Shown: in pieces, positions 2,796 through 62,979 of the stretch
Numbering within the stretch: the first letter of the stretch is position 1
Layout: each line of letters opens with the position of its first letter
Origin: an uncultured Eubacteriales bacterium
Lineage (GTDB): Bacteria > Bacillota > Clostridia > Oscillospirales > Acutalibacteraceae
Length of the DNA: 64,000 nucleotides
Direction of reading: 5' to 3'
Assembly: GCA_964639205.1 (NCBI GenBank)
Contig: CAZXCG010000002.1
Span: 3,692-67,691, forward strand
Program-made: the position numbers and the translations under genes
The notes under the pieces: model-generated
Databases searched by the model: none
The model's input: the letters and a program-made list of their open reading frames with translations, nothing else
Told to the model about the DNA's origin: nothing

Positions 2796-4154
2796 ATGAG
2801 AAAAGTAAAAATATCGGGAATTATATCGTCGGCTCTTGTATTTGCGCTGGTGCTTGCAACGCTGACATTCGCGGCGTCGGCTGAAAGCTCCGGCGATTTC
2901 AGCTATACTGTTTTAGAAGACGGCACGGCTAAAATAACCGGCTACACCGGTCCGGGCGGCGATGTTGAAATTCCGTCTGAGATTAACGGCTGCATTGTAA
3001 CTGGCATTGGGAATGCCGCGTTTGTACGGTGTGAAAGCCTTACAAGCGTAACAATTCCCGACAGCGTTACAAGCATCGGTAATTCTGCGTTTTCCGGCTG
3101 TACAAGCCTTACAAGCGTTACAATTCCGGTCAGTGTGACGAGCATTGGTGATTTGCCGTTCTCCATCTGCACGCTATTAACGGCAATTAATGTAGCTGAA
3201 GAAAACGAAAATTACTGTTCTGTTGACGGCGTCCTGTTCAGCAAGGACGTTACCTCCTTGATTGCGTATCCGGCAGGAAAAGAACAATCGTCTTTTGACG
3301 TTCCGCAAAGTGTGACTGACATTGAATGCTATGCGTTTTACTATTGCAAAAATCTTACAGCGGTTACTATCCCCGAAAGCGTTACAAGCATTGAAGGCTA
3401 CGCGTTTTCCGGCTGTACGTCGTTAACGGCGATTGACGTAGATGAAAAAAATGAAAATTACTGTTCCGTTGCCGGAGTTGTGTTCGATAAGAACGTTGAG
3501 GAGCTGATTGCATATCCGATAGGAAATGAACAGACGGTTTATCTTGTTGCGGATGGTGTAACAAGCATTGGCGGCGGTGCGTTTGAGGGCTGTAAAAACC
3601 TTGAAGACGTTACGCTCCCGGCGAGTATGACGAGCATCGGCGACGACGCGTTTTACAGCTGCAAAAATCTTGTAAGCGTTACCCTCTCCGAAGGTCTGAC
3701 AAGTATTGGCGACAGTGCGTTTTTCGCCTGTCCCGGTCTTACAAGCATTACAATTCCCGCAAGCGTGACGGTTATAGGAGCAAACGCTTTTACTCACTGT
3801 ACAAGCCTTGAGCTTGCAACCTTCCTTTGCGATGATGTTGATATTTCGGAAAATGTTTTTAAAGACTGCGCCGAAAATCTTACAATACGCGCAGCGGCGG
3901 GCAGCTCGGCAGCAGAATATGCAAACGCAAACGGACTTACATTCAAAGATTCCGCTTTAGCTCCGGGCGATGTAAATTCCGACGGCAAGGTTGACTCTGC
4001 CGACGCTACTCTTGTTTTGCAATTTTATGCCGAAATTATCGGTGAAAATACAGAAGGGTACAACAACAGCGCCGCCGATTTAAACGGCGACGGCGCTGTA
4101 AATGCTGCGGACGCTACGATTATACTCCAAATGTACGCGGGAATAATAAATTAA
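2796..4154 (+). CDS. secreted BspA-type leucine-rich-repeat protein with C-terminal type I dockerin
   Basis: 452 aa. Signal peptide MRKVKISGIISSALVFALVLATLTFAASA. Repeated units of about 23 aa (SLTSVTIPxSVTSIGxxAFxxC). C-terminal duplicated Ca-binding segments GDVNSDGKVDSADATLVLQ / DLNGDGAVNAADATIILQ (nt ~3948-4151). Confidence 0.88.
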   Translation: MRKVKISGIISSALVFALVLATLTFAASAESSGDFSYTVLEDGTAKITGYTGPGGDVEIPSEINGCIVTGIGNAAFVRCESLTSVTIPDSVTSIGNSAFSGCTSLTSVTIPVSVTSIGDLPFSICTLLTAINVAEENENYCSVDGVLFSKDVTSLIAYPAGKEQSSFDVPQSVTDIECYAFYYCKNLTAVTIPESVTSIEGYAFSGCTSLTAIDVDEKNENYCSVAGVVFDKNVEELIAYPIGNEQTVYLVADGVTSIGGGAFEGCKNLEDVTLPASMTSIGDDAFYSCKNLVSVTLSEGLTSIGDSAFFACPGLTSITIPASVTVIGANAFTHCTSLELATFLCDDVDISENVFKDCAENLTIRAAAGSSAAEYANANGLTFKDSALAPGDVNSDGKVDSADATLVLQFYAEIIGENTEGYNNSAADLNGDGAVNAADATIILQMYAGIIN

Positions 4155-5445: not shown

Positions 5446-6468
5446 ATGGGATACAGCAGCAGCGTATATCAAACCGCGTACCGTATTATGGAGCAGCGGC
5501 GCATGGATAATCAATCGGCGCTTTTAAAACGTCAGGAAGAAATTTACACAAAAATTCCGCGCGCCGAACAAATCGGGCGCGAGCTCTCCTCTTGCGGCAT
5601 TTCCGCCGCAAGAGCGGTTATATCCGGCGGAAATGCCGCAGTGGAAATAGAAAAGCTCAAGCAAAAATCTCTTGCTCTGCAAACAGAGCTTGCAGCTCTG
5701 CTGACTGACAGCGGCTACCCCGAAAATTACCTTGAACCCTCCTACCGCTGCCCCATTTGCAAGGATAAAGGAACATATGAGGATGAAGCGCACAGCAAAA
5801 CCGTGGTTTGCGACTGCTTCCGCCAATTGCTGACAAAAACCGCCTGCGAAGAGCTTAACAGGCATTCTCCGCTTTCGCTTTCCACGTTTGACAGCTTCTG
5901 CCTTGATTATTATTCAAAGGAAGCTGAAAACGGCTCGTCGTCACCGTATACGCGAATGACGCGTATTTTCGAGTTTTGCAGGCAATATGCCGACGAATTC
6001 GGCGCGGAATCCGCAAGCCTGTTTATGACCGGCGCGACAGGTCTTGGCAAGACGCACCTCAGTCTTGCCATTGCAAACGAGGTTACACGCAAAGGCTTCG
6101 GCGTAATTTACACCTCCGCCCCCTCTGTTCTTTCCGAGCTTGAAAAACTGCATTTTTCCTACAGCTATCAGCAGGAAAACGAAACTGCGGAAACTCTTAC
6201 GGAATGCGATCTGCTGATTATTGATGATTTGGCGACAGAATTTTCTTCTTCCTACAGCAAGGCTGCGCTTTACAATATATTTAACGGAAGAATCCTGAAA
6301 AGCAAGCCGACAATTATAAACACAAATCTTTCTTTTAAAGAGCTCGAAGCCTTTTATTCCCCCCGCTTTGTGTCGCGGCTGTACGGGGAATTTGTTAAGC
6401 TCGATTTTATAGGCAAAGACGTTCGCGTAGCGTCAAAGCAGGGCAAGCCGCCATTACCGCATAAATAA
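5446..6468 (+). CDS. DnaC/DnaI-like helicase-loader AAA+ ATPase
   Basis: 340 aa. Zn-binding CPICKDKG..CDC, Walker A GATGLGKTHL, Walker B LLIIDDL. GGGAGG RBS. Confidence 0.85.
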   Translation: MGYSSSVYQTAYRIMEQRRMDNQSALLKRQEEIYTKIPRAEQIGRELSSCGISAARAVISGGNAAVEIEKLKQKSLALQTELAALLTDSGYPENYLEPSYRCPICKDKGTYEDEAHSKTVVCDCFRQLLTKTACEELNRHSPLSLSTFDSFCLDYYSKEAENGSSSPYTRMTRIFEFCRQYADEFGAESASLFMTGATGLGKTHLSLAIANEVTRKGFGVIYTSAPSVLSELEKLHFSYSYQQENETAETLTECDLLIIDDLATEFSSSYSKAALYNIFNGRILKSKPTIINTNLSFKELEAFYSPRFVSRLYGEFVKLDFIGKDVRVASKQGKPPLPHK

Positions 6469-6470
6469 AA

Positions 6471-6497
6471 AAGTCCCCCTCTGAATAGCGGGGACTT
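6471..6497 (-). terminator. intrinsic terminator (mainly for the minus-strand HPr-like gene; possibly bidirectional)
   Basis: AAGTCCCC..GGGGACTT hairpin. On the minus strand it is followed by TTTTTATTTAT. Confidence 0.6.
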
Positions 6498-6505
6498 AAA
6501 ATAAT

Positions 6506-6751
6506 TTACAGCCCGGCTGCTGCCGTAAAAGGCTCAAGGTCTTTGATAAACTCCTCGGGGACGCTGTCGTTTTCAACCTCAAGCCTTATCGGTTGGGACA
6601 TATCCAGCGATATAACTCCCATTATTGAGTGAGCGTCAATCTTATAGTGGTTATTGTAAAGAAATATACGAAGACCGCTATATTTGCAGGTTATGTTTAC
6701 AAACCGTTTTGCGTCGTCCAAAGAAGTTATGACTATTTCTTCCGTATACAT
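6506..6751 (-). CDS. HPr-like domain protein (Ser46-region motif present, His15 not conserved)
   Basis: 81 aa. KIDAHSIMGVISLDM matches the HPr K-S-I-M-G-x-M-S-L region. The N-terminal GxHARP motif is replaced by SLDDAKRF. Confidence 0.6.
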   Translation of the reverse strand: MYTEEIVITSLDDAKRFVNITCKYSGLRIFLYNNHYKIDAHSIMGVISLDMSQPIRLEVENDSVPEEFIKDLEPFTAAAGL

Positions 6752-6871
6752 TGTTCCTTCCTCCCGAAATTACATTGGTAATTAAATTTTTTGCACTGCA
6801 TCCGAGCGCCGCAGCAGCGGAATATTTTAAGCTTAAAAGCAAAGCAACCCGCTTAAAATAGAGCCTGCGAA

Positions 6872-6923
6872 CATCTGCGCTCAGGTTCAATATTGGGCTT
6901 TGCGCCGTCATTATATTTAACTA
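6872..6923 (-). repeat. chimeric fragment of the intergenic element families
   Basis: Read on the minus strand: a family-1 right end (..GGCGCAAAGCCCAATATTGAA) abuts a family-2-like left end (CCTGAGCGCAGATG). Confidence 0.5.
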
Positions 6924-13638: not shown

Positions 13639-13785
13639 TTCAATAAGGGGCTTTGCCCCGTCATTCAACGCAGCAAAGAGCAGCGTTAGCTGCCTGAAAA
13701 ATCAGTGTGGGATGCAGTATTCCCAACTGATTCCGAAAGTGGAACCCGCCGCCTTATAGGCGGGAGACATCTTTGCCTGAGTTAT
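13639..13785 (-). repeat. structured intergenic element, family 1, copy A
   Basis: The minus strand reads TATAACTCAGGCAAAGATG..CCCGCCTATAAGGCGGCGGG..GGCAGCTAACGCTGC..TTGAATGACGGGGCAAAGCCCCTTATTGAA. It lies just 3' of the hexosamine kinase gene on the same strand. Confidence 0.85.
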
Positions 13786-13800
13786 ACCTGTTACAGCGGA

Positions 13801-24627: not shown

Positions 24628-24638
24628 TAAAAGCTCCT

Positions 24639-24770
24639 ATAACTTTAGCGCGGACGTCCCCCGCCCCTGAGGCGGCGGGTTGCGGCTCGGAATTTAAGCG
24701 GGAGTTACAATTTGAAAAGCTGACGCTCCCCCCGCGCACGCTGCAACCGCAGCGTTACCTCGATTTAAAC
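24639..24770 (+). repeat. structured intergenic element, family 2, copy F
   Basis: TATAACTTTAGCGCGGACG..CCCGCCCCTGAGGCGGCGGG..CCGCGC..GCTGCAACCGCAGC. It shares the left module and the CCGCC-loop-GGCGG hairpin with family 1. Located between scfA and scfB on the opposite strand. Confidence 0.7.
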
Positions 24771-27672: not shown

Positions 27673-27699
27673 TTAGCACTCTGAGATAAAGAGTGCTAA
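27673..27699 (+). promoter_or_regulatory. CIRCE element (HrcA operator)
   Basis: TTAGCACTC-TGAGATAAA-GAGTGCTAA is an exact match to the CIRCE consensus TTAGCACTC-N9-GAGTGCTAA. Confidence 0.85.
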
Positions 27700-27900
27700 T
27701 TTTTCATAAATCGTTCATATCCGTATCACAAACAATTCGCAAAGGCGGCGTACAATCAAAACAGAAAAGGGAAAGAAGGTGAATCCGATGGGTCGGTCAG
27801 AAACAGCTGCAATAAAATCAGCGGTTAAAAATCTAACGATCCGCTGAACACGATTCCCGGTCTACCCCATCGGTATAGAGTTAAAAAGGGCGGACATAAT

Positions 27901-28048
27901 ATAACTTAGGCAAAGATGTACCCCCCGCCTCCAAGGCGGCGGGTTCCATTCTCGGAATCAGCGGGGGGATACAATCTCCCAATGTGATTTCACAGACAAC
28001 TAACGCTGTCCTTTGCCACGTTGAATGGCGGGGCAAAGCCCATTATTA
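27901..28048 (+). repeat. structured intergenic element, family 1, copy B
   Basis: (T)ATAACTTAGGCAAAGATG..CCCGCCTCCAAGGCGGCGGG..CTAACGCTGTCCTTTGCCACGTTGAATGGCGGGGCAAAGCCCATTATTAAA. It ends 28 nt before the hsp20 ATG on the same strand. Confidence 0.85.
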
Positions 28049-28075
28049 AACACAACAATTTTGGAGGTATTTATT

Positions 28076-34581: not shown

Positions 34582-37500
34582 TTACTGCTGAATGGGGAAT
34601 TTACTGATAATATTAGCGTAGATCTGAAGAATCAGCGTTGCGTCTGAAGAGTCTATTACATTGTTGCCGTCAACATCAGCCGCTTTTTTAACGAACGTCT
34701 CGTAATTATCATCAATAATTTCTGCGTAACGCTGCAGAACAAGCGTCGCGTCGGCCGAGTCAACAGCGCCGTTTCCGTCAACATCGCCGAGGGTGTACTG
34801 CTCTTCGGCAGAAGAGCCTACCACGCGTATTTCTGCCGCAGATGAGTAATCTACATCCTGAGAATCCGAGTAAGATTCTACCGATACAAGCTTTACATAC
34901 TTTGTTTCTACCGTATCGAAGGAAGCGGTTTTAAGGGCTGAATCCGCCGACCATTCGCCTTCGCAAACAGTCTTCCATTCGTTACCGTCTTCACTTACTT
35001 CAATGCGGTATTTTGTGATTGTACCGTTAAGGTCAGACTGTGAGGGCAGGTAAGTTACAGCGTAAACGCCGTAGTCACCGTCCAGCTCCAGAATGATGTA
35101 ATGCAGCGAGCGGTCAGACCCGTTTAAATCGGTTTGCCAAATCGTGTTTACATCATCGTCAAGAGCCATCTCGGCTCCGGCGCCGACGGAGCTGCTGCCT
35201 GCCGTTGCGGTGATGCTGTCGGCCGGAATTACATCATCGGTTCCGTAAATGGTAACGTTCTGTGAAGCAAAGGTAACTGTTTTTGCAGTGTCCTTCAGCA
35301 TTGCCTGCACTGTTACGGTGTAGGTTCCACCGGGCAAATTTTGAAGCAGCGCGTCCGTATCGACCCAATCGCTTGTTGAAAAGTTATAGCTGCCGTTTGC
35401 TGCGGATACAAACACATATGCAACGTCTTGACCGTAGGCGCCGGAGAGCGCGTCGGCATCCAACTCAATTTGGTTCTGAGAAACGGTAAGCTGAGGAACA
35501 ATACTGCTGCTCTCATAGCCCATCGGGGTTTCGTACCAGTTGTTGTAAACCGCGCTGTTTAAAGAATCAAGTCCGAGAGCGTCAATAAACATACGCGCCA
35601 TATAGATGTGTCCGTTAGCCGACGGGTGCAGATTATCCGTTGAGTTAAAGAACAGGTAATCCGCTCTTGCGCCTAATGAATCGCCGTTTGCAATGTAGGT
35701 AAGGGAATTAACAAGATTCGTCGTTTCTTCAAACTGATTGATGAAGATAAGTCCGTTTTCTTCGGCAACTTCTTTGGCCGCCTGAACATAGTCGGGCTGG
35801 TTTGCATTGTAGTCAAGCCTTACAATAGGAGCGCGTATAACGGCTATTGCTCCCTTAGCTTCAATAGCATCGACAATAGACTGGAGATTTGCTTTATAGG
35901 TAGCCACGGGAATCAAATTGGCAAGCGTTGCGTCGTTTGTACCCAGTTGAACAGACACAACATCGGGGGAATAACGGTTAAGTCTTTCGTTTATTCTCGC
36001 AAGAGTAGACGTTGTGGTTGCCGATGAAACGGCGGTATTTATAACCGTGTCGTCAACTCTGCCCAAATCCTCGCGAATATATTTTGTGAATATATCCGCA
36101 ATGTTGTCGTAGGCTTTGCCGTAACCCATGGCAACGCCGTGAGTAATGGAGTCGCCCATAAACATCCATGTGAGCGGCTCGTCGCCGTTTACAAGGTCGG
36201 CAATCTGCTGCTGCTGTTCGTCAAGCTCTCGCTGATATTTAACGGCTGCGCTGCCTTCCTGTATAACGCCCTGCATTACCGTAAGCTGCGTTGTTCCGTC
36301 TTCGGAGCAAACCGTCAGGTAATATTCTGCGCCGGCGGGAAGAGCTTTAAACTCCGCCGTATTGCCGGACAGGCAGGAAACCGTGTACGAACCCTCAACT
36401 GTAAGAGCGTAATTCCAGTTTGTGCTTTCGTCAACGCCGGAGAGCGCCACGCTTAGGGATGTTTGACCCGCTGTAGCTGTGATTACCGCGTCGGCGTCGT
36501 AAACTGAGGGCCCTTCAACGGAAACAAGATTGAGGTTACTGCTTGTAAGAGATGAAGAAGCGCCGATCGCCTTTGCCTCAAACTGCTTGGAAATTGAAAG
36601 ATGACCCGTCGCGTTAAGAGAACCGTCCTCGTTAAGCGATGTGCTTAAGAAGCTTGCGTTATCCGTGCTTGCAAAGTGGTTTACAACCGCAACCCGTGCA
36701 AGCTGATCCTCCGGAAGAGCCGATACAACCTCGTTTACCGCAAGAGCATACGCGATTGCGTTTTCTCTGAGCTGTTCATCTGCGGGAGCATACGGGTTCT
36801 GAATTACCACATAGCCTGTTCCGCTTCTGAGGTTAAGTCCTTTTTCTATAAATGCGCTGAGGTTTGATTTAAATGCTTCAAGCGCGGAAGCTGAAGCGTC
36901 GTCTGCATAATCTTCGGCACCTACCATATATGAAACGGCTTTGGGGTCGAAGGCTGTAACAAGGGCGTCAAAGTCTTCAACTATATCGGCAAGAGTTCTG
37001 CCGGTTTGACCCTCGTTGATAACATAGCGTTCTCTGTTCGGGTTGCCCGTCAGGCTGTTTGTACCGTCCGCGCTGCCGGGGTTATTGTCGTAGGTGTATT
37101 CCTTAAACTGGGAAACATAGTTTTTAGCGCCGCCTACGTCAGAGAAAGGACCCTGAACAACGCGACCGCCGACAAACACCCATGTGTTGCCGCTTTCACT
37201 GTTGAACATTGTTGAAGCGCTTATCGAAGAACCGCTTGAAATATTGGGGACGGCGGTTTCTATTGCCGTGCGCTCAATAAGCTCCTCGTCCGAAAGCGGG
37301 ATGGAATAAGCTTCGGCAAAAGCAATTGTGCCGCCGAAATAATATGCCGAAGCGCCCGCGCGCATGGTCGAACCCAACTGGACTGTGTCAAGCCCTGTAA
37401 TATTGCTTATAAAGCTTGTTCTGCCGTCAAATGTGCCTACAAGGACGCCGTTGGCAAATACCTTGTACTGCTGCAAATCCTTATCGTACTTAACGGCTAT

Positions 37501-40500
37501 GGCGTTTTCACTTCCGCTGTTTAAAACCGCGCCGGTTGTAAACGAGTTGGTTGTGCCGCTTGCAATGTTGTCGCGCGATTCCATTCCGATAACACCGGCA
37601 GGCGTAATGTAAATGTGGAAGTGACGGTTGCTGTTGCCGGCAGTGTTGTTGGAAACGCTGATAAGCGACTGTATGGCATAGCTGGAGGTGGAAGTAAATT
37701 TAATGATGAACGTTCCCTCGTCCATAGCCATAACCCGACTTGCATAATCTTTACTTGTGAGTGAAACTCCGTTATTTGTGCTTACTTCAACGTTTTCTTC
37801 ACGGAAGATCAGCCCCTGAGCCGAGGCAATAATGTTAAAATCACTTTCTGAAGAATAGGAACCGTTTTCCGCCCTTACACGGATTGTGTAGGTTTGACCG
37901 TCTGTAAGCGCCTGCGAACCGATTTTCAAAACGCTGCCGTCGATTGCAAAGAGGCTGTTTTGATTATTTTCGCCTACAAGGGAATATGTGTAATTCCCTG
38001 CGGGAGCCACTGTGCTGACGGACAGAACGCCTATCTGCGCGCCGGCGGTTAAATCGGAAGCAATGTTGTTGCTGAGGAGGACGCCGAAGGTTACCTCCAT
38101 TTCGTCCGAAAGCGACGCTTGCTGCGAAGCAAACGTTACCGAAGTCGGAGTTGCTTTGAGCTCGGCGGTAACAGAAACCGTGTAATTTCCGTTTTCAAGG
38201 TTGGAGAGCGTCACCGTCGTTTCGGACGCTGTCGCCACGGTTTTGCTGAAAGAATTGCCGTCTTTATCAGCAGCTGTAAGAGTTACATAACCCAGGTCGC
38301 TGCCGTACTGCGAGGCAAGCTCGGACGCGTCTAAAACAATTTTACCCGGAGCGGCGGAAATCGACGGGGTAAGCGTGCTTGTCGATTCTGTCTTTGAAAT
38401 TTTGTACCAGTGGTTATAAACGGCACTGTTGTATGTGTCGAAGCCGAGGCTTTCGATAACTGTGCGCGCCATAACTATATGACCGTTTGCATTGGGGTGA
38501 ATGGCGTTTCCGAGCAGCAGATAATTTGCAAGGCTGCTGCCGTTAAGGTAGCTGGCGTTGTCTGTCAGCTCGCCGAAGGCTGCAAACTGGTCGGCAAATA
38601 TGACGTTGTCGTACGTTGCGGCTACTTCTCTTGTCTGCTGAATAACGGTTGCAAGATTTGTAACGTAAGAGCTGCCGGAGCTTGCGGGGGTTGAGGTTCT
38701 GAGCACTACTATAGCGCCCATCTCCTGAGCCTTATCTATAATCTGCGTAAGCTGCGTTTTAAAGTTTGCAAGGTTGCTCGCGGAGTCGTTCATACCGAGC
38801 TGAATTAAAACAACGTCGGGGCTGTAGTCGGTAAGTCTGCCGCTTATATTGTTTAACGTACTCTGGGCGGTCGCGCCGGAAACTGCGGTGTTGAGCACAA
38901 CGTCGTCGGTTCTGCCGAGCTCCTCTTTGATGTACTTTTCAAAAATCTGGCTGACGGAATCGTAGCCTGCCGTCCAAAGCGCTCCGTGAGTAATGGAATC
39001 GCCCATAAACAGCCATGTAAGCGATTCCTTCTGTTCCATTAAGTCGGCGATCGCCTGCTGGTTTTTATCCAATTGAGCGGTCTTTTTAACCGCTTTGTCG
39101 TTTTCGGCAACCGTGCCGCTCATTACGGTGTACTGTGTTACTCCGTCGGCGGTTGTTACCGTGAGCGTATATTCCTCGCCCTGCGGAAGCGCGGCGGTTG
39201 TAATGCCGCTTTCGGTATACTGAGAAGTTTTTGAAAGCGTGTAAGAATCGGTTTCAACAGTATATGTGTAGCTGTCGCCTACCGTAAGCTTATCCGAGGT
39301 GAAAGTAAGCGTGTTATCGCTGTTCACCACAGCGGTTACTTCAACGTCCGAATAAACGGTGGGACCTTCTTCAAGCTGCAAGGAAAGGTTTGAATCCGTT
39401 ATGCTGTAGCTCAAGCCGATTGCCGAGCAAAGCTCCCTTGCAATTTCAAGCTGACCGTTTGCGTTAAGATAACCGGATTCATTGATTTTTGAAGCGAAAG
39501 CCGCCGAACCGGAGGTGAGGCGGTTGTGGTTGACAACCAGGACGCGCGGCTGAACCGTGCTGTCAAGAGCGCTGACAACCTCGTTTACCGCAAGAGCGTA
39601 GGCTTTTGCAGCCTCCGCTTGATTTTCATCGGCGGGAGTATAGGGGTTTTGAATAACTACGCGCCCGGTATTGTCTCTTTGAGCAAGACCCTTTTCTATA
39701 AAGCTCTTGAGATTTTCCTTAAAGGCGGTAAGCACGGTATCCTCGGTTCCCTTGCTGTAATCCTCGTACCCAACAAGATAAGCTATAGTCTGGGGATTAA
39801 CCTCTGCAAGAGACGCATCCAGAGAACCTACCACCTTTGCTATGTCGTTGCCTGTAGCGCCGAAGTTTGTAACAAAGCGCGCCATATTCACGCTGTAGCC
39901 GCCCGACGAGGCGTTAGTTGCGTCGCCCGAACCGGGGTTATTCTGCCAGCGGATTGCCTCTTCAAACTGCCTTACATAGTTTCTTGATCCGCCCGCCTCG
40001 GCATATGTTCCCTGAACGTCGCGCCCGCCGAAGAAAGCCCAGGTGTTCTTTTCAACGTCAGACGAAGGAGCAGTTTTTGATTTAACGTCTGCGCCCGTGG
40101 CAAGGTCGGGAACCGCGTCGGGGTCAACGGGCAAAGCCGTAATAACGGCAAGCTCATCCGCTGTGTAAACCTCTTCGGAAATTAAGGCAAAGTAAATAGT
40201 GCCGCAGAAAAGCCTCATATTTCCGGCAACGGTGCCGTCCAAGCCGCCGAGATACAGGCGGTCAATTTCAGTATTGCTGAAAAATTTTGCAGCACCCGAA
40301 AAAGACTGAGCGTTTGCGCCGTCGGACGCCGCAACGGTTGAAGTTCCGCTTACCGTGGAAAAAGCATATATGTGCTTCTGACCGTCGTTTATGCCGCTCT
40401 GCGCTCCGTTTGCGCCCCAGTAAGTACTGGTAGTGGAGCTGTTATTAAACGAAAAGCGAAAAGTATTGCTTTTAACTCCCGTCCAGAAATGATTGAAGCT

Positions 40501-41115
40501 GCCGGAACCGAAAACAGCATAGGTGCCGGTGCTGTTGGTTGAGGTGTTGGAGTTGGTTGTAGCAATGCTGTAAATAACCGAACCCTGTGACAAAGCCTTA
40601 AGCTTTGCAATAACATCCGGATTTGTTGTCTCGCTTGTTCTTACGTTGGGGCCGGCAAGCTGAACTACGCTGTCTGTGGAATCGCCTGCAAAAACCTCGC
40701 CGGCGTCGCCGTAGTCAACAGCTACCAGAGCGTTTTTCTTCAACGCTTCAAGACCTGTTTGCTCGCTGACCGTTGCGCTGCCAACGGTTTCTGAATTCTT
40801 TTTGACGGTGTAGGTTTCGCCGCCCTCGGTTCCGGTGGCAACCGGAACAATCGCGGTGTAGTAATATGTGCCGTCGGCGGAAACATGCGTTATGGTTGCC
40901 GACGAGGTTATATCACCGCTTGAATTTTCAACAGTAAACGTTGCCTCGTCAGAGCTTTGCCATTCGATTTTATGGGACTTGTAAAGAGCAGACGCAGTAA
41001 CCGCATTTCCCGCGTCCTCAGCGCCCGCCGTGAACGGAACCGCGGTGAATACCGAAAGCACCATAATCACGGAAAGCAGAATGGAAAGCGTTCTTTTTGA
41101 ATAAGCTTTCATCAA
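34582..41115 (-). CDS. giant secreted multidomain protein: 2 x (LamG-like + degenerate SGNH + Ig-like + intact SGNH esterase + Ig-like), F5/8 type C (discoidin/CBM32-like), dockerin
   Basis: 2177 aa. Signal peptide MMKAYSKRTLSILLSVIMVLSVFTAVPFTAGA. GDS motifs at residues 705-707 (nt 38995-39003) and 1654-1656 (nt 36148-36156), with LGMNDS/LGTNDA and HPNANGH/HPSANGH blocks. GGR replaces GDS at residues 363-365 and 1316-1318. Discoidin-like region ..DDDVNTIWQTD..KYRIEVSEDGNEW... C-terminal dockerin GDVDGNGAVDSADATLVLQ / DVDGNNVIDSSDATLILQ. Confidence 0.88.
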   Translation of the reverse strand: MMKAYSKRTLSILLSVIMVLSVFTAVPFTAGAEDAGNAVTASALYKSHKIEWQSSDEATFTVENSSGDITSSATITHVSADGTYYYTAIVPVATGTEGGETYTVKKNSETVGSATVSEQTGLEALKKNALVAVDYGDAGEVFAGDSTDSVVQLAGPNVRTSETTNPDVIAKLKALSQGSVIYSIATTNSNTSTNSTGTYAVFGSGSFNHFWTGVKSNTFRFSFNNSSTTSTYWGANGAQSGINDGQKHIYAFSTVSGTSTVAASDGANAQSFSGAAKFFSNTEIDRLYLGGLDGTVAGNMRLFCGTIYFALISEEVYTADELAVITALPVDPDAVPDLATGADVKSKTAPSSDVEKNTWAFFGGRDVQGTYAEAGGSRNYVRQFEEAIRWQNNPGSGDATNASSGGYSVNMARFVTNFGATGNDIAKVVGSLDASLAEVNPQTIAYLVGYEDYSKGTEDTVLTAFKENLKSFIEKGLAQRDNTGRVVIQNPYTPADENQAEAAKAYALAVNEVVSALDSTVQPRVLVVNHNRLTSGSAAFASKINESGYLNANGQLEIARELCSAIGLSYSITDSNLSLQLEEGPTVYSDVEVTAVVNSDNTLTFTSDKLTVGDSYTYTVETDSYTLSKTSQYTESGITTAALPQGEEYTLTVTTADGVTQYTVMSGTVAENDKAVKKTAQLDKNQQAIADLMEQKESLTWLFMGDSITHGALWTAGYDSVSQIFEKYIKEELGRTDDVVLNTAVSGATAQSTLNNISGRLTDYSPDVVLIQLGMNDSASNLANFKTQLTQIIDKAQEMGAIVVLRTSTPASSGSSYVTNLATVIQQTREVAATYDNVIFADQFAAFGELTDNASYLNGSSLANYLLLGNAIHPNANGHIVMARTVIESLGFDTYNSAVYNHWYKISKTESTSTLTPSISAAPGKIVLDASELASQYGSDLGYVTLTAADKDGNSFSKTVATASETTVTLSNLENGNYTVSVTAELKATPTSVTFASQQASLSDEMEVTFGVLLSNNIASDLTAGAQIGVLSVSTVAPAGNYTYSLVGENNQNSLFAIDGSVLKIGSQALTDGQTYTIRVRAENGSYSSESDFNIIASAQGLIFREENVEVSTNNGVSLTSKDYASRVMAMDEGTFIIKFTSTSSYAIQSLISVSNNTAGNSNRHFHIYITPAGVIGMESRDNIASGTTNSFTTGAVLNSGSENAIAVKYDKDLQQYKVFANGVLVGTFDGRTSFISNITGLDTVQLGSTMRAGASAYYFGGTIAFAEAYSIPLSDEELIERTAIETAVPNISSGSSISASTMFNSESGNTWVFVGGRVVQGPFSDVGGAKNYVSQFKEYTYDNNPGSADGTNSLTGNPNRERYVINEGQTGRTLADIVEDFDALVTAFDPKAVSYMVGAEDYADDASASALEAFKSNLSAFIEKGLNLRSGTGYVVIQNPYAPADEQLRENAIAYALAVNEVVSALPEDQLARVAVVNHFASTDNASFLSTSLNEDGSLNATGHLSISKQFEAKAIGASSSLTSSNLNLVSVEGPSVYDADAVITATAGQTSLSVALSGVDESTNWNYALTVEGSYTVSCLSGNTAEFKALPAGAEYYLTVCSEDGTTQLTVMQGVIQEGSAAVKYQRELDEQQQQIADLVNGDEPLTWMFMGDSITHGVAMGYGKAYDNIADIFTKYIREDLGRVDDTVINTAVSSATTTSTLARINERLNRYSPDVVSVQLGTNDATLANLIPVATYKANLQSIVDAIEAKGAIAVIRAPIVRLDYNANQPDYVQAAKEVAEENGLIFINQFEETTNLVNSLTYIANGDSLGARADYLFFNSTDNLHPSANGHIYMARMFIDALGLDSLNSAVYNNWYETPMGYESSSIVPQLTVSQNQIELDADALSGAYGQDVAYVFVSAANGSYNFSTSDWVDTDALLQNLPGGTYTVTVQAMLKDTAKTVTFASQNVTIYGTDDVIPADSITATAGSSSVGAGAEMALDDDVNTIWQTDLNGSDRSLHYIILELDGDYGVYAVTYLPSQSDLNGTITKYRIEVSEDGNEWKTVCEGEWSADSALKTASFDTVETKYVKLVSVESYSDSQDVDYSSAAEIRVVGSSAEEQYTLGDVDGNGAVDSADATLVLQRYAEIIDDNYETFVKKAADVDGNNVIDSSDATLILQIYANIISKFPIQQ

Positions 41116-41144
41116 ATTCCTCCTGTCTGATTAAAATTAACTCA

Positions 41145-41289
41145 AGCCGTCGGCTTGCCTTTAATGGGCGAAGTTTACAGCAGACTGCATGCGCCGCGGG
41201 AAGCTTCGGCTCTTTAAAGCTTAGGCGGAAGCCGTCCCGGCGTGAAGCCCCGCCGCCTTAGAGGCGGTGGCCGTCCGCGCTCAGGTTAT
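41145..41289 (-). repeat. structured intergenic element, family 2, copy G
   Basis: The minus strand reads TATAACCTGAGCGCGGACGGCCACCGCCTCTAAGGCGGCGGGG... It lies in the sense orientation within the predicted 5' UTR of the giant gene. Confidence 0.7.
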
Positions 41290-41314
41290 AATTGCGTTAA
41301 ACTACTCCACTTAT

Positions 41315-51616: not shown

Positions 51617-52690
51617 ATGAAAAAGATTATGTCTGTTTTATTGTCGCTGCTGTTTATAATTACCGCTGTGCAGCTCTCGATTATTCCGTCTTCGGCATTC
51701 ACAGACGAAATCGACTTCCGCTACACCCCTAAGGAAGACGGAACCGTAAGCGTATTTTCATACAATTGTTACCACTTACCATATGACACTTCTGTCCTTA
51801 TTCCTGCAGTATTGGGCGGTTGTCCGGTATCTGAAATCGGAGTTGCCGCATTTTATCACAACTCCCGTATAGAGCTTGTAGTTATTCCGGAAGGCGTAAC
51901 AACTATTTCAAACATGGCTTTCAGCGGCTGCACGGCTCTTGTCAATGTAACATTACCGAGTACCTTAACGTATATCGGCGCAGATGCATTCAATTCATGT
52001 GAAAATCTTACGACGATCGAACTGCCGTCCGGGCTGGAAACAATCTGTAGTAACGCTTTTCGTGAGTGCAGCAGTCTTGAAAGCGTTGTTATTCCATACG
52101 GTATAACCGATTTAAGCGGCGCTCTGTTTGCCGACTGCTCATCTCTTACATACGTTGAAATACCTGAAAGCGTTGTCAGCATAGGGGGAACAACTTTTTC
52201 ACGTTGTTACTCCTTAGAAAGCGTAACGCTTCCGTCAAGCGTTAATGAAATAGGCATCGGAGCTTTTATGAATTGCACAAGTCTTGAAGAAATTGCGATT
52301 CCGGACAGCGTTGAGGTGATATACGAGAACGTTTTCAGCGGATGCACGAGCCTCAAAAAGGCATTTATACCTGCCGGTGTGAATAAAATTTATACCTCCG
52401 CATTTGATAATTGCAGTGAAGAATTGGTTATTTACGGATACTCCGGCACTACCGCCGAAACATACGCCGCTGCTCAGGGTATTAAATTTGTTGCGCTGGA
52501 CGGCGGCAAAGGCGATGTAAACGCAGACGGAGAGATCAACGCTGCGGACGCTACCCTTATTTTGCAATACTATGCCGAAATTATTGGTAAAGATACTTAC
52601 GGATACCACGCTGCCGATATGAACGGCGACGGTCTGGTAAACGCAACTGACGCCACGCTTATACTTCAGATATACGCCGGCATAAATTAA
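51617..52690 (+). CDS. secreted BspA-type leucine-rich-repeat protein with C-terminal dockerin (paralog of 2796..4154)
   Basis: 357 aa with a signal peptide. LRR units (LxxVxIPxGVTxIxxxAFxxC). Dockerin GDVNADGEINAADATLILQ / DMNGDGLVNATDATLILQ (nt ~52499-52687). Confidence 0.88.
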   Translation: MKKIMSVLLSLLFIITAVQLSIIPSSAFTDEIDFRYTPKEDGTVSVFSYNCYHLPYDTSVLIPAVLGGCPVSEIGVAAFYHNSRIELVVIPEGVTTISNMAFSGCTALVNVTLPSTLTYIGADAFNSCENLTTIELPSGLETICSNAFRECSSLESVVIPYGITDLSGALFADCSSLTYVEIPESVVSIGGTTFSRCYSLESVTLPSSVNEIGIGAFMNCTSLEEIAIPDSVEVIYENVFSGCTSLKKAFIPAGVNKIYTSAFDNCSEELVIYGYSGTTAETYAAAQGIKFVALDGGKGDVNADGEINAADATLILQYYAEIIGKDTYGYHAADMNGDGLVNATDATLILQIYAGIN

Positions 52691-53152: not shown

Positions 53153-53203
53153 TTCAATAAGGGACTTTGCCGCGCCATTCAACGTGGCAAAGGGCAGCGT
53201 TAG
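53153..53203 (-). repeat. structured intergenic element, family 1, truncated copy C (right-end third only)
   Basis: The plus strand reads TTCAATAAGGGACTTTGCCGCGCCATTCAACGTGGCAAAGGGCAGCGTTAG, matching copy A up to the GCAGCGTTAGC hairpin. After that the similarity stops. Confidence 0.7.
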
Positions 53204-53244
53204 GTACAGCTCGGCAAAGAGATTTTTTTAAAATAAGACAGCAT

Positions 53245-60542: not shown

Positions 60543-60559
60543 TTTCTGTCCTCCTAATT

Positions 60560-60703
60560 ATAACTTAGGCAAAGATGCCCCCAGCCTCTAAGGCGGCTGG
60601 TTTCATTTTCGGAATCGGTGAGGGGATACAATCCCCCATTGATTTTTAAGGCGGCTAACACTGCCCTTGCCACGTTGAATGACCGGCAAAGGGCATTATT
60701 GAA
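60560..60703 (+). repeat. structured intergenic element, family 1, copy D
   Basis: (T)ATAACTTAGGCAAAGATG..CCAGCCTCTAAGGCGGCTGG..GGGGATACAATCCCC..GGCGGCTAACACTGCC..TTGAATGACCGGCAAAGGGCATTATTGAA. It starts 18 nt from the exporter ATG on the opposite strand. Confidence 0.85.
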
Positions 60704-61529: not shown

Positions 61530-61557
61530 ATATCAGTGATATATATCACTGATATAT
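61528..61557. promoter_or_regulatory. perfect 30-nt palindrome, candidate TetR operator
   Basis: ATATATCAGTGATAT|ATATCACTGATATAT. It spans from the last 2 nt of the -10 box to the first 2 nt of the tetR ATG. Confidence 0.65.
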
Positions 61558-61584
61558 TATATGCGCCTTTTTATAATTTGTCAA
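61556..61584 (-). promoter_or_regulatory. consensus sigma-A promoter for tetR
   Basis: The minus strand reads TTGACA-17 nt-TATAAT, both hexamers matching consensus exactly. Confidence 0.65.
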
Positions 61585-61727
61585 GAGTAAAGTTAAATTC
61601 AGTTTTCCCGATTGAGTTAAAAATTGCGTTAAAAATTGTGCTTAAAGCCCTTGGCAGCGGGAAGCGCTGCGGATGTCATTAACCCCGCGATTCCGCAAAG
61701 TTTGCGAAAATCGAGTACGGACATGCC

Positions 61728-61771: not shown

Positions 61772-61863
61772 TGGCGCAGAAGGAGGGATTTGAACCCTCG
61801 CGTCGGCGTTACCGACCTACCGGTGTTCGAAGCCGGACCCTTCAGCCGCTTGGGTACTTCTGC
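61772..61863 (-). tRNA. tRNA-Ser (anticodon CGA), class II with long variable arm, CCA encoded
   Basis: Minus strand: GCAGAAG TA CCC AAGCGGCTGAA GGG T CCGGC TTCGAAC ACCGG TAGGTCGGTAACGCCGACGC GAGGG TTCAAAT CCCTC CTTCTGC G CCA. 7-bp acceptor stem, 3-bp D stem, T-loop TTCAAAT, anticodon loop TT-CGA-AC. Confidence 0.9.
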
Positions 61864-62030
61864 ATATTTGTTTTAAGAAGAAGCCGCAATGATACTTTAT
61901 TGTTCAAATCACTTACGGCACAATTAAAACGCCTTTGAGGTAAAAACAGCCTCGCCGTATACACACGGGGCTGCTCCCTGCATACAATATAATAGTATCT
62001 TTTTAATAATTTGTCAAGTATCAAGTAAAA

Positions 62031-62786
62031 TCACGAGCTCTTACTATCCTTGCCGGAAGAGTCTTCTGAGTTTTTCTTTTCGGAAGTATTCTTTCTCCCT
62101 TTAAGGTAATGTGCAATAATATAGACAGTAAAAAACACAACAAGAACCGCGGCGGCAATAATAATTTCCCTGTTTTCGGCGGAAAGCGCTTTGAGCTCAA
62201 CAGAGGTTTTATTGCTTTCATACGATTCTTCCGTGTAAGCGTCTTGAGAAGCCTGACTGTTGTAATTTGAATTTGTACTGATGCTGAAATTGCTGCTCTT
62301 TATGCTGCCGACCGAAAGCTCGCCGCTGCTTTTCTCGGTGACGGTAAACGGGCAGCTGAAGCTTTCATTAAATTCAAGAGGCTGCCCGTTTGAGTCGATC
62401 GCTTCCTTTACGGTTACATCAAAGCTGCCGGAGCCGCCGTTTTTTGAAATAAACTTCAACCCCAGCAATTTTGAAGCTTCGGCAGAATCAATAGGCTCGG
62501 TAACAAGAAAAATAACGTTCACAACACCGTTTTTATCATAGGTCTCGACCCGCGAGCCGCTCACTGTCTTTTCAGTACCGCGAAACTCCACAACGTCGGA
62601 ATTATACTTAACAGAAAAAAGCACGGAACAAAACGAGGAGGTTCCATCCTGTATATAAAAATCCAAAGTAAAAATCCGGTTATAACGCGTACCCTCACTG
62701 TATGCGGAAAACTCCGCCGCAGCTGCGGAAAACAGAAACAAATTAACAAGAAGAACGCCGGTTATAAAAGCAACCAATCTTTTCAT
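62031..62786 (-). CDS. cohesin-like domain protein with signal peptide and C-terminal membrane anchor
   Basis: 251 aa. Signal MKRLVAFITGVLLVNLFLFSAAAA. Beta-rich domain of about 130 aa whose pattern (FCSVLFSVKYNSDVVEFRG .. VNVIFLVTEP .. LLGLKFISKNGGSGSFDVTV) parallels cohesin modules. Ser/Asn linker, TM helix IIIAAAVLVVFFTVYIIAHYL, basic tail. Confidence 0.55.
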   Translation of the reverse strand: MKRLVAFITGVLLVNLFLFSAAAAEFSAYSEGTRYNRIFTLDFYIQDGTSSFCSVLFSVKYNSDVVEFRGTEKTVSGSRVETYDKNGVVNVIFLVTEPIDSAEASKLLGLKFISKNGGSGSFDVTVKEAIDSNGQPLEFNESFSCPFTVTEKSSGELSVGSIKSSNFSISTNSNYNSQASQDAYTEESYESNKTSVELKALSAENREIIIAAAVLVVFFTVYIIAHYLKGRKNTSEKKNSEDSSGKDSKSS

Positions 62787-62834
62787 AATCTTTGCACCGT
62801 ATTTTCAAGGCGAAATAAGCACTGCGCGTTATCT

Positions 62835-62979
62835 ATAACTTAGGCAAAGATGCCCCTCCGCCTCTAAGGCAGCGGATTCCGTTTTCGGAATCAGTGGGGG
62901 ACAATCCGCCATTGATTTCACAGGCAGCTAACGCTGCCCTTTGCCGCGTTGAACGACGGGGCAAAGCCCCCTTATTGAA
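62835..62979 (+). repeat. structured intergenic element, family 1, copy E
   Basis: (T)ATAACTTAGGCAAAGATG..TCCGCCTCTAAGGCAGCGGA TTCCGTTTTCGGAATCAG..GGCAGCTAACGCTGCCCTTTGCCGCGTTGAACGACGGGGCAAAGCCCCCTTATTGAA. Lies between the AKR stop and the cohesin-like gene start, on the opposite strand. Confidence 0.85.

Follow-up and report, generated by a model that had tools for sequence, protein, structure and literature searches.

A short structured repeat of rumen and gut Clostridia that is very probably non-autonomous mobile DNA, with ends resembling those of IS200/IS605 elements

The stretch analysed here, referred to below as the window, is 64,000 nt of DNA from an uncultured Eubacteriales bacterium of the Acutalibacteraceae (contig CAZXCG010000002.1, assembly GCA_964639205.1). 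Its positions 62834-62979(+) hold one copy, the focal copy, of a gene-less intergenic element of about 145 nt. The element is very probably a non-autonomous mobile DNA repeat and not an RNA gene. We also lean, with distinctly less assurance, towards movement by an IS200/IS605-type single-strand mechanism, which would make it a gene-less element resembling the palindrome-associated transposable elements (PATEs). To judge by Rfam 15 and the literature searched, the family has not been described before, and the kind of element is already familiar; a literature search for a described Ruminococcus repeat, or for TATAA as a target motif, gave nothing relevant. A first-pass annotation of the window had suggested either a hairpin-ended non-autonomous mobile element, of IS200/IS605-PATE or REP style, or a structured RNA family. 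The former is well supported by the near-identical genome-specific copies, the presence or absence of the element at given sites, the fixed pentamers at its ends, the lack of a duplication and the random orientation that are described in the following paragraphs.

A collection of species-representative genomes was scanned for TATAAC followed, after a gap, by a hairpin of the form CCGCC-loop-GGCGG, the sequence of the closing helix being left free. At least 110 loci were found; among the matches listed about 100 are genuine and about eight are chance matches in coding DNA of unrelated phyla. All of the genuine loci among the matches listed belong to Ruminococcus, Ruminiclostridium, Oscillospiraceae or unclassified Clostridia, mostly metagenome-assembled genomes (MAGs) from rumen or gut; no fewer than 25 genomes of Ruminococcus, Ruminiclostridium and Oscillospiraceae carry the family. 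A covariance model based on 12 diverse members and run over about 760 kb of collected loci (numbered with the prefix L) gave 120 matches, five of these within a single 8-kb block (L045). Copies occur about once per 10 kb in the window, and a rough tally for the CALXBK MAG gives about one extra copy per 19 kb; the earlier figure of hundreds of copies per genome is an extrapolation from local density. Organisms rich in the element include the CALXBK and CASFZT MAG species, Ruminococcus sp. Marseille-P6503 and the window's own organism. Nothing similar was found in annotated plasmid and phage collections. Viral contigs scanned for the tail motifs gave no match, and the copy at L111 is the only one on a viral contig. 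Although the element is otherwise confined to Clostridia, two copies are present in a MAG labelled "uncultured Bacteroides sp." (L013, CAZYDW01), whose contig is probably mis-binned or mislabelled.

The element is an insertion that has recently multiplied within genomes. Copies within one genome are 93-100% identical (the five of JAFPYQ are all identical, and the 19 of CALXBK have a median of 97%), and those of different genomes are mostly about 55-80% identical. Copies are found at contig ends, where they break assemblies (L112, L194, L198), and a Logan contig from the window's own organism ends within the focal copy. Where the element is present, rimO and pgsA are 170 nt apart; in relatives that lack it (81% protein identity) the gap is 14 or 76 nt. 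At rluA the element is present in L067 and L198 and the site is empty in L199; the 3′-end of a histidine-kinase gene is filled in L033 and empty in L057. The focal site lies downstream of an aldo/keto reductase gene, where three relatives (83-85% identity) have a terminator or other DNA instead and no match to the model; a metagenome scan with the reductase yielded no orthologous locus, its best relative having 68% identity. Between the MAG species CALXBK and CASFZT the elements are 94% identical (up to 99%) and the sole syntenic coding stretch compared (L086 vs L101) is 73% identical, a contrast which, from this one syntenic pair, suggests horizontal spread of the element or strong constraint on it. 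The deletion derivatives at L002 and L042 were considered as proof of a mobile minimal element and rejected, since their junctions differ and they are independent deletions.

Every subfamily follows a common plan of TATAA, a C with arm X, hairpins 1 to 3, X′, GTT and a 3′ module. The focal copy has TATAA at 62834-62838(+), and its mobile unit would start with C-TTA and the 5′ arm X (62839-62849(+); X itself is GGCAAAG, 62843-62849), which covariation pairs with X′ at 62939-62945. The sequence of arm X is lineage-specific: GGCAAG, GCGCAG, GCAAGC, GCAGAG, GCTGC and AAATTAAG are all found. Hairpin 1 (62850-62882(+)) is the candidate left-end hairpin and is built of a lower stem ATG/CGT, an upper stem TCCGCC (62857-62862)/AGCGGA (62871-62876) and an 8-nt loop, TCTAAGGC (62863-62870). 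This loop hardly varies across the superfamily, and it served as the anchor by which the roughly 100 genuine copies in other genomes were detected. The long hairpin 2 (62887-62919(+)) has the arms GGAATCAGTGGGGG / CCGCCATTGATTTC, with the conserved top CAGTGGGRG-..AATC-CYCCCACTG. Hairpin 3, GGCAGC-TAAC-GCTGCC (62923-62938(+)), has a stem whose sequence is wholly swapped between lineages with pairing retained; the CAJTWN subfamily does not have this hairpin, yet with five copies at 95% identity it has still multiplied.

X′ (CTTTGCC, 62939-62945) is followed by GC and GTTGAA (62948-62953), the three together spanning 62939-62953(+). The GTT pairs with the AAC of TATAAC, and the internal TTGAA is a copy of the terminal motif and marks the junction of core and tail. 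The tail unit of the focal copy (62954-62979(+)), CGAC-GGGG-CAAAG-CCCC-C-TTATTGAA, is the candidate right-end hairpin and ends in a terminal TTGAA (62975-62979) that resembles the transposon-encoded motif (TEM) of IS200/IS605 elements. Tails of the window's subfamily are 24-26 nt long and read TGAC-GGGG-CAAAG-CCCC-TTATTGAA. In general, the 3′ module carries X again and ends in TTGAA, TTTAA or TTTAAA; the 3′ end is TTATTGAA in 40 copies, GATTTAAA in 14 and GCTTTGAA in 10. The three-way complementarity of GGCAAAG, CTTTGCC and GGCAAAG reported in the first-pass annotation is present. A short form (L048, 6496-6619(-)), with the closing helix TTGTCACG/CGTGACAA, ends in GTTGAAT and is without a tail; a methionyl-tRNA synthetase-like gene follows, its ribosome-binding site and start codon coming directly after this short form. 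At L080 (~6460-6490(+)) the sequence TATTAAC-TTAGGGCAAG-CCCC-TTATTTGA is the remnant expected of a deletion between two direct copies of the X arm, and from this remnant the direct repeats inside the element appear to recombine.

The two ends of the element differ in their relation to the host. When copies were collected through core hairpin 1 alone, with no motif being required, 116 of 118 began with TATAAC and the other two with AATAAC. Nine solo tails were found, each matching the subfamily of its own genome, and all nine directly follow TATAA. In three of three filled/empty pairs (70-81% identity) TATAAC aligns with host sequence; the filled rimO site reads GTA TAA C| and the empty one GTC TGA C|, the stop codon being at the same position. 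Of 14 long open reading frames (ORFs) that are open up to the element, nine stop at the TAA of TATAAC, where one third would be expected, and the viral-contig copy at L111 also supplies an ORF stop through its TATAAC. TATAA is most likely a host-derived target sequence, akin to a target-adjacent motif (TAM) and outside the mobile unit, an assignment that these sequence comparisons support and do not prove. The right pentamer, TTGAA, belongs to the element, and the terminal TTGAA or TTTAA differs from TATAA at one or two positions. Units are bounded by T-W-K-A-A| on the left and TTGAA| on the right, and the pieces, namely core, tail and a copy of another subfamily, meet at T-W-K-A-A junctions. 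Hairpin 1 begins 11-19 nt after TATAA|, and the presumptive cut point at TTGAA lies 8 nt (GGGG/CCCC hairpin) or 12 nt (X′/X hairpin) past the 3′ hairpin.

Two copies, L045(-) at ~6471-6611 and L067(-) at ~1393-1509, have a second TATAAC 2-3 nt past the 3′ end with no element after it, where chance would give about 0.2 by a rough estimate; this could be a footprint or an unused target. A "tandem" copy at L051 was considered as a sign that TATAAC travels with the element and rejected, its upstream piece being a solo 3′ hairpin with an inverted loop.

No target-site duplication was found, as had been claimed before: for k=2-8 the counts are within the permutation range, with none at k>=6, and the flanks show only an A/T preference at positions -1 and +1. 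The companion claim, that there are no terminal inverted repeats, needs amending. An imperfect inverted repeat, TATAAC-nnn-X / X′-nn-GTTGAA, is present and constitutes the closing helix; it is not terminal on the right, where the tail of about 24 nt follows it. Such a repeat of about 15 nt, closing the core of a short, gene-less and AT-flanked element, is what would be expected if TATAAC-X ... X′-GTTGAA were the ends of a conventional miniature inverted-repeat transposable element (MITE) moved by a DDE transposase. We regard this as very improbable, given the lack of a duplication at any k from 2 to 8, the asymmetry of the ends, with the right repeat arm 24 nt inside the 3′ end, and the several internal hairpins that covary independently and are unexplained by back-to-back terminal repeats.

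The tail behaves as a module. Besides occurring solo, it follows the core TTGAA in about 41 composites (38 with TTGAA+TGAC, plus variant spacers), and it is duplicated in tandem in L006, L107 and L022. A short tail hairpin that is found solo, in tandem and in composites, always at a fixed junction motif, would also suit a repeat of the repetitive extragenic palindrome (REP) or bacterial interspersed mosaic element (BIME) kind, kept by a domesticated REP-associated tyrosine transposase (RAYT), with the 24-nt tail hairpin as the REP unit and the core of about 120 nt as an accessory module. The extragenic location, high copy number and occurrence in both orientations are compatible with this, as is the fact that no autonomous insertion sequence (IS) was seen. 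The 5′ GTAG of REPs is however absent, the 24-nt tail hairpin starting with TGAC; the dominant unit is 145 nt long and has four or five hairpins; a host pentamer with a related terminal pentamer is the arrangement of IS200/IS605; and no RAYT gene was seen among the ORFs of the loci, a weak test. We give a RAYT-maintained repeat a slim chance.

Covariation was computed on 113 distinct sequences, in an alignment fitted to the model, which favours structure. Paired cells amount to 89.6% compared with 76.9% in shuffles (0 of 500 reach the observed value), and the covariation score is 0.225, as against 0.043 or less with slid partners. The paired substitutions described in the first hairpin by the first-pass annotation are real and extend to the whole fold, in which 37 of 41 pairs show compensatory changes. 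In the closing helix X/X′ all six pairs are compensatory and 91% of cells are paired; helix 1 (AAC/GTT) is likewise 91% paired, and the upper stem of hairpin 1 97%. Both sides have changed in seven of the nine pairs of the lower stem of hairpin 2 (94% of cells paired), and all six pairs of hairpin 3 are compensatory, with four to six pair types each and 95% of cells paired.

This fold is under selection, yet it bears no mark of being RNA. Both strands fold equally well, with mean energies of -65.5 kcal/mol for the given strand and -66.5 kcal/mol for the complement. G·U cells number 74 against 126 for A·C, or 42 against 36 outside the columns of fixed mismatches, and about 95% of the pairs in predicted folds of single copies are Watson-Crick. 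Because the stems are nearly all Watson-Crick and G·U is not above A·C, there is no sign of selection on RNA. Orientation relative to genes is random (28 copies sense, 22 antisense, 17 between convergent and 11 between divergent genes), so that the mixed orientation remarked on earlier is borne out by gene context. No promoter was found at the 5′ edge of the copies and no terminator at the 3′ edge. TATAAC itself was rejected as a -10 box, as its final T is missing, there is no conserved -35 box or TG extension and a promoter scan makes no call; a tRNA-like cloverleaf was rejected because loop sizes and sequences do not fit. With Rfam 15 at the gathering threshold, the window and 14 loci gave tRNAs only, and no subfamily of the element was matched; in E-value mode the focal copy gave only chance matches to miRNAs.

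A functional structured RNA, be it a cis-regulatory leader or riboswitch, a small RNA gene, or the omega RNA of a TnpB or IscB with the 3′ flank as its guide, is in our view unlikely. It would account for the multi-helix fold and its strong covariation (37 of 41 pairs), for loops that are invariant across subfamilies only 55% identical overall, and for the many copies that end 10-40 nt before a ribosome-binding site and start codon (hsp20 in the window, L111, L048 and several others). The complementarity of X, X′ and X would in addition permit a switch or pseudoknot. The two mutually exclusive folds that had been proposed on this account stand as a fact of sequence, and nothing shows that they are relevant at the RNA level. 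Neither this reading nor the structured RNA family offered by the first-pass annotation agrees with the random orientation, the lack of a 5′ promoter and of a terminator, the equal folding of the two strands, the base-pair composition just given or the failure to match Rfam 15, its IS605- and HEARO-type families included; RNA genes passed on vertically would also not be expected to have near-identical sequences specific to one genome.

The omega-RNA version does not conflict with the element being a PATE as well. Along the same lines, the closed fold might be a trans guide-RNA scaffold for a TnpB/IscB-type nuclease or for a nuclease-dead regulator of TldR type, or else the enzyme that moves the element might be one for which no link to folded single-strand substrates has so far been made in Firmicutes. 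These ideas are quite improbable as we see them. If the scaffold version were true, a genome would hold a hundred or more copies, every one offering a different guide in the form of its 3′ flank, and the copies would form a genome-wide set of RNA-guided maintenance or regulatory sites.

The pairing of AAC with GTT in 91% of cells and the unpaired spacer (TTA vs AC) before X/X′ recall an integron attC site, with AAC...GTT as R boxes, X/X′ as L boxes and the hairpins as variable terminal structure. GTTGAAT fits the consensus GTTRRRY, and the core of about 120 nt falls within the length range of attC sites. The copies are nevertheless scattered singly, in either orientation, among housekeeping genes, with no one-directional cassette arrays; the window has no integrase; the supposed R′ box is followed by a conserved tail of 24 nt; and a host-side TATAA is a poor fit to exchange at G|TT. 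An attC-type folded site, or another substrate of a tyrosine recombinase, is accordingly hardly credible as an explanation.

The PATE-like reading is preferred because the features of the ends match what has been published of IS200/IS605 elements and PATEs. With their left end, IS200/IS605 elements insert 3′ of a tetra- or pentanucleotide lying outside the IS itself (PMC5027513, PMC3201880), and the cleavage sites of IS608 lie 19 nt 5′ and 10 nt 3′ of its subterminal hairpins (PMC3201880). PATEs without any gene are known, TAM differs from TEM at about two positions, and alternative TEMs can be used (PMC10055086). By analogy, a Y1/HUH transposase encoded elsewhere in the genome would act in trans on one DNA strand, where it would recognize the left end by hairpin 1 and the right end by the 3′ hairpin. 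It would cut after the host TATAA and after the element's TTGAA, releasing a single-stranded circle to be pasted 3′ of another TATAA; the junction of the circle would be expected to read ...TTGAA|C-TTAGGCAAG... Use of the internal TTGAA in place of the terminal one would give rise to the solo and tandem tails. The closing helix and hairpins 2 and 3 would be kept as perfect DNA hairpins, perhaps for compacting the strand or joining the ends, a role that is speculative. The effects on host genes, namely the supply of stop codons and insertions into 5′ leaders and into gaps between stop codon and terminator, would be by-products of a TATAA target in AT-rich gene boundaries.

Several observations weigh against this mechanism. 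No transposase, recombinase or reverse transcriptase was found in the 64-kb window, and no transposase beside copies that have the 5′ module only. No Y1 homologue was present among 4,003 ORFs in about 0.9 Mb of loci, a weak test with about 30 kb per genome. A full-length parent with the same ends was not seen in the window, in the loci or beside partial copies. The left and right end hairpins are dissimilar, unlike those of IS608, and on inspection the candidates for guide bases (ATGT, TGAC and the X arm) show no convincing complementarity to, or covariation with, TTGAA vs TTTAA. The filled/empty pairs, all 70-85% identical, are too diverged for the exact empty site. Hairpins 2 and 3 covary strongly, which TnpA-type transposition would not require. 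Finally there is no orientation bias: by a rough tally neighbouring copies have the same and opposite orientations about equally, and sense copies number 28 to 22 antisense. This last point is not strictly disqualifying, because GstTnpA excises on either replication strand (PMC10055086). Copies of the 5′ module followed by foreign DNA were inspected as possible autonomous parents and rejected; judged by eye, the neighbouring ORFs resemble those of a primase, a histidine kinase, a LytR-type protein, a protease and a transporter.

A repeat search together with the covariance model brought the pieces of the family in the window to nine, two variant copies, one solo tail and one deletion derivative being added to the four full copies and the 3′ fragment. 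The five copies listed in the first-pass annotation are real, with all coordinates within 1-5 nt and with four matches each to the 5′ and 3′ signatures compared with 0.00-0.02 in shuffles; the four other related pieces had not been listed. The full copies score 131-140 bits under the covariance model. The window's own copies, at 81-85% identity, are older than the near-identical ones described above. Apart from the focal copy, which the model also matches, the full copies are located at 27900-28050(+) in the hsp20 leader, between the CIRCE operator and the ribosome-binding site (131 bits); at 60559-60703(+), antisense to its two neighbours, an ABC-transporter gene and a TetR gene (135 bits); and at 13639-13786(-) between the convergent tatD and phosphotransferase genes (138 bits). 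The 3′ fragment (53153-53208(-), 21.8 bits) retains a remnant of hairpin 3, X′, GTTGAA and the tail. Two old copies belong to a second subfamily: a degenerate one at 24638-24768(+) with the 5′ arm AGCGCGGAC and the 3′ end CGATTTAAA (42.7 bits), and one at 41137-41293(-), upstream of the ribosome-binding site of a 2177-aa ORF (20.7 bits). The solo tail at 6886-6915(-), detected with the tail motif, consists of TATAA (6915-6911) and TGACGGCGCAAAGCCCAATATTGAA (6910-6886). Its TTGAA is abutted, with no gap, by the deletion derivative at ~6825-6885(-), C-CTGAGCGCAG-ATGT-TCGCAGG..., which was assigned to the second subfamily (subfamily C) by comparison with other subfamily C sequences and whose 3′ limit is approximate.

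The window is ordinary core chromosome, containing metA, proS, dnaD/dnaI, metG, tatD, a sugar ABC transporter, ilvBHC, typA, ABC exporters, the TetR gene and the aldo/keto reductase gene. Upstream of hsp20 there is a perfect CIRCE operator, the binding site of HrcA, at 27673-27699 (TTAGCACTC-N9-GAGTGCTAA), which is followed by the element copy (27900-28050), GGAGG (28064-28068) and the ATG (28076); this heat-shock leader thus holds an inserted hairpin cluster of about 150 nt. No exact matches to the hsp20 and TatD proteins are on record. Two proteins of the window, encoded at 2796-4154(+) and 51617-52690(+), have BspA-type leucine-rich repeats and a C-terminal type I dockerin, the dockerin-coding DNA of the two genes being 78% identical; their domain content points to a cellulosome-bearing organism of Ruminococcus type. 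The 45-nt stretches at 61554-61598 and 61987-62031 are 76% identical, and each carries a minus-strand sigma-70 promoter that is nearly perfect (TTGACA-17-TATAAT at 61584-61556 and TTGACA-17-TATTAT at 62017-61989), one of the two being upstream of the TetR gene and the other upstream of an 89-nt tRNA (61775-61863(-)). The 2177-aa ORF (34582-41115(-)) has internal DNA repeats at 36137/38984 and 36715/39565.

The family is abundant across the Ruminococcaceae and Oscillospiraceae of rumen and gut and breaks metagenome assemblies. The element rewrites the ends of genes through its stop codons and occupies 5′ leaders and the gaps between stop codons and terminators. Because of this abundance, the broken assemblies and the altered gene ends, cataloguing the family should help MAG assembly and gene calling, and it should also help in reading intergenic "structured RNA" candidates. 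If it moves as proposed, the element would be a clean natural example of TAM/TEM logic in single-strand transposition, notable for its chained modules and for a structure that covaries unusually strongly, and from the TATAA target one could predict which TAM an associated RNA-guided nuclease, if any, would have.

PATEs are gene-less derivatives of IS200/IS605 elements, examples being the ISGst-related minimal elements of Geobacillus stearothermophilus (PMC10055086) and those of Haloquadratum (PMC3119063). Like them, the element is gene-less and makes no duplication, its left end lies at a fixed host pentamer (TAM) and its right end has a related pentamer (TEM), its hairpin-to-cut distances are like those of IS608, alternative right-hand sites are in use, and it is multicopy with a genome-specific sequence. 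Unlike the case of PATEs, no cognate TnpA, TnpB or IscB element was identified in the loci examined. The element also differs from PATEs in its TATAA motif, which we did not find reported for any element in the literature searched, in its dissimilar end hairpins, in its closed multi-hairpin interior with strong covariation and in showing no orientation bias.

Insertion 3′ of a tetra- or pentanucleotide is shared with IS608, IS605 and ISDra2 (TTAC in the case of IS608; PMC5027513), as are the geometry of the cut sites (PMC3201880) and ends without terminal inverted repeats or duplications. Those IS are 1.3-2 kb long and encode tnpA with or without tnpB, and IS608 and ISDra2 have a lagging-strand orientation bias that is not seen here. 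REPs and BIMEs with their RAYTs resemble the element as short extragenic hairpin units of high copy number that occur singly, in tandem and in composites, and presumably in HUH chemistry; they differ in their 5′ GTAG and length of 20-40 nt, as against 145 nt with a TATAA or TTGAA junction motif.

Modular structured repeats of other Firmicutes include BOX of Streptococcus pneumoniae and bcr1 of the Bacillus cereus group. BOX is made up of A-B(n)-C modules and has no fixed flanking pentamer, and for bcr1 a TTTAT duplication has been reported. Neither has sequence similarity to the element. What it has in common with both of them is a construction from optional or repeated modules, strong predicted folding, an intergenic location and a mobilizing enzyme that is unknown or acts in trans.

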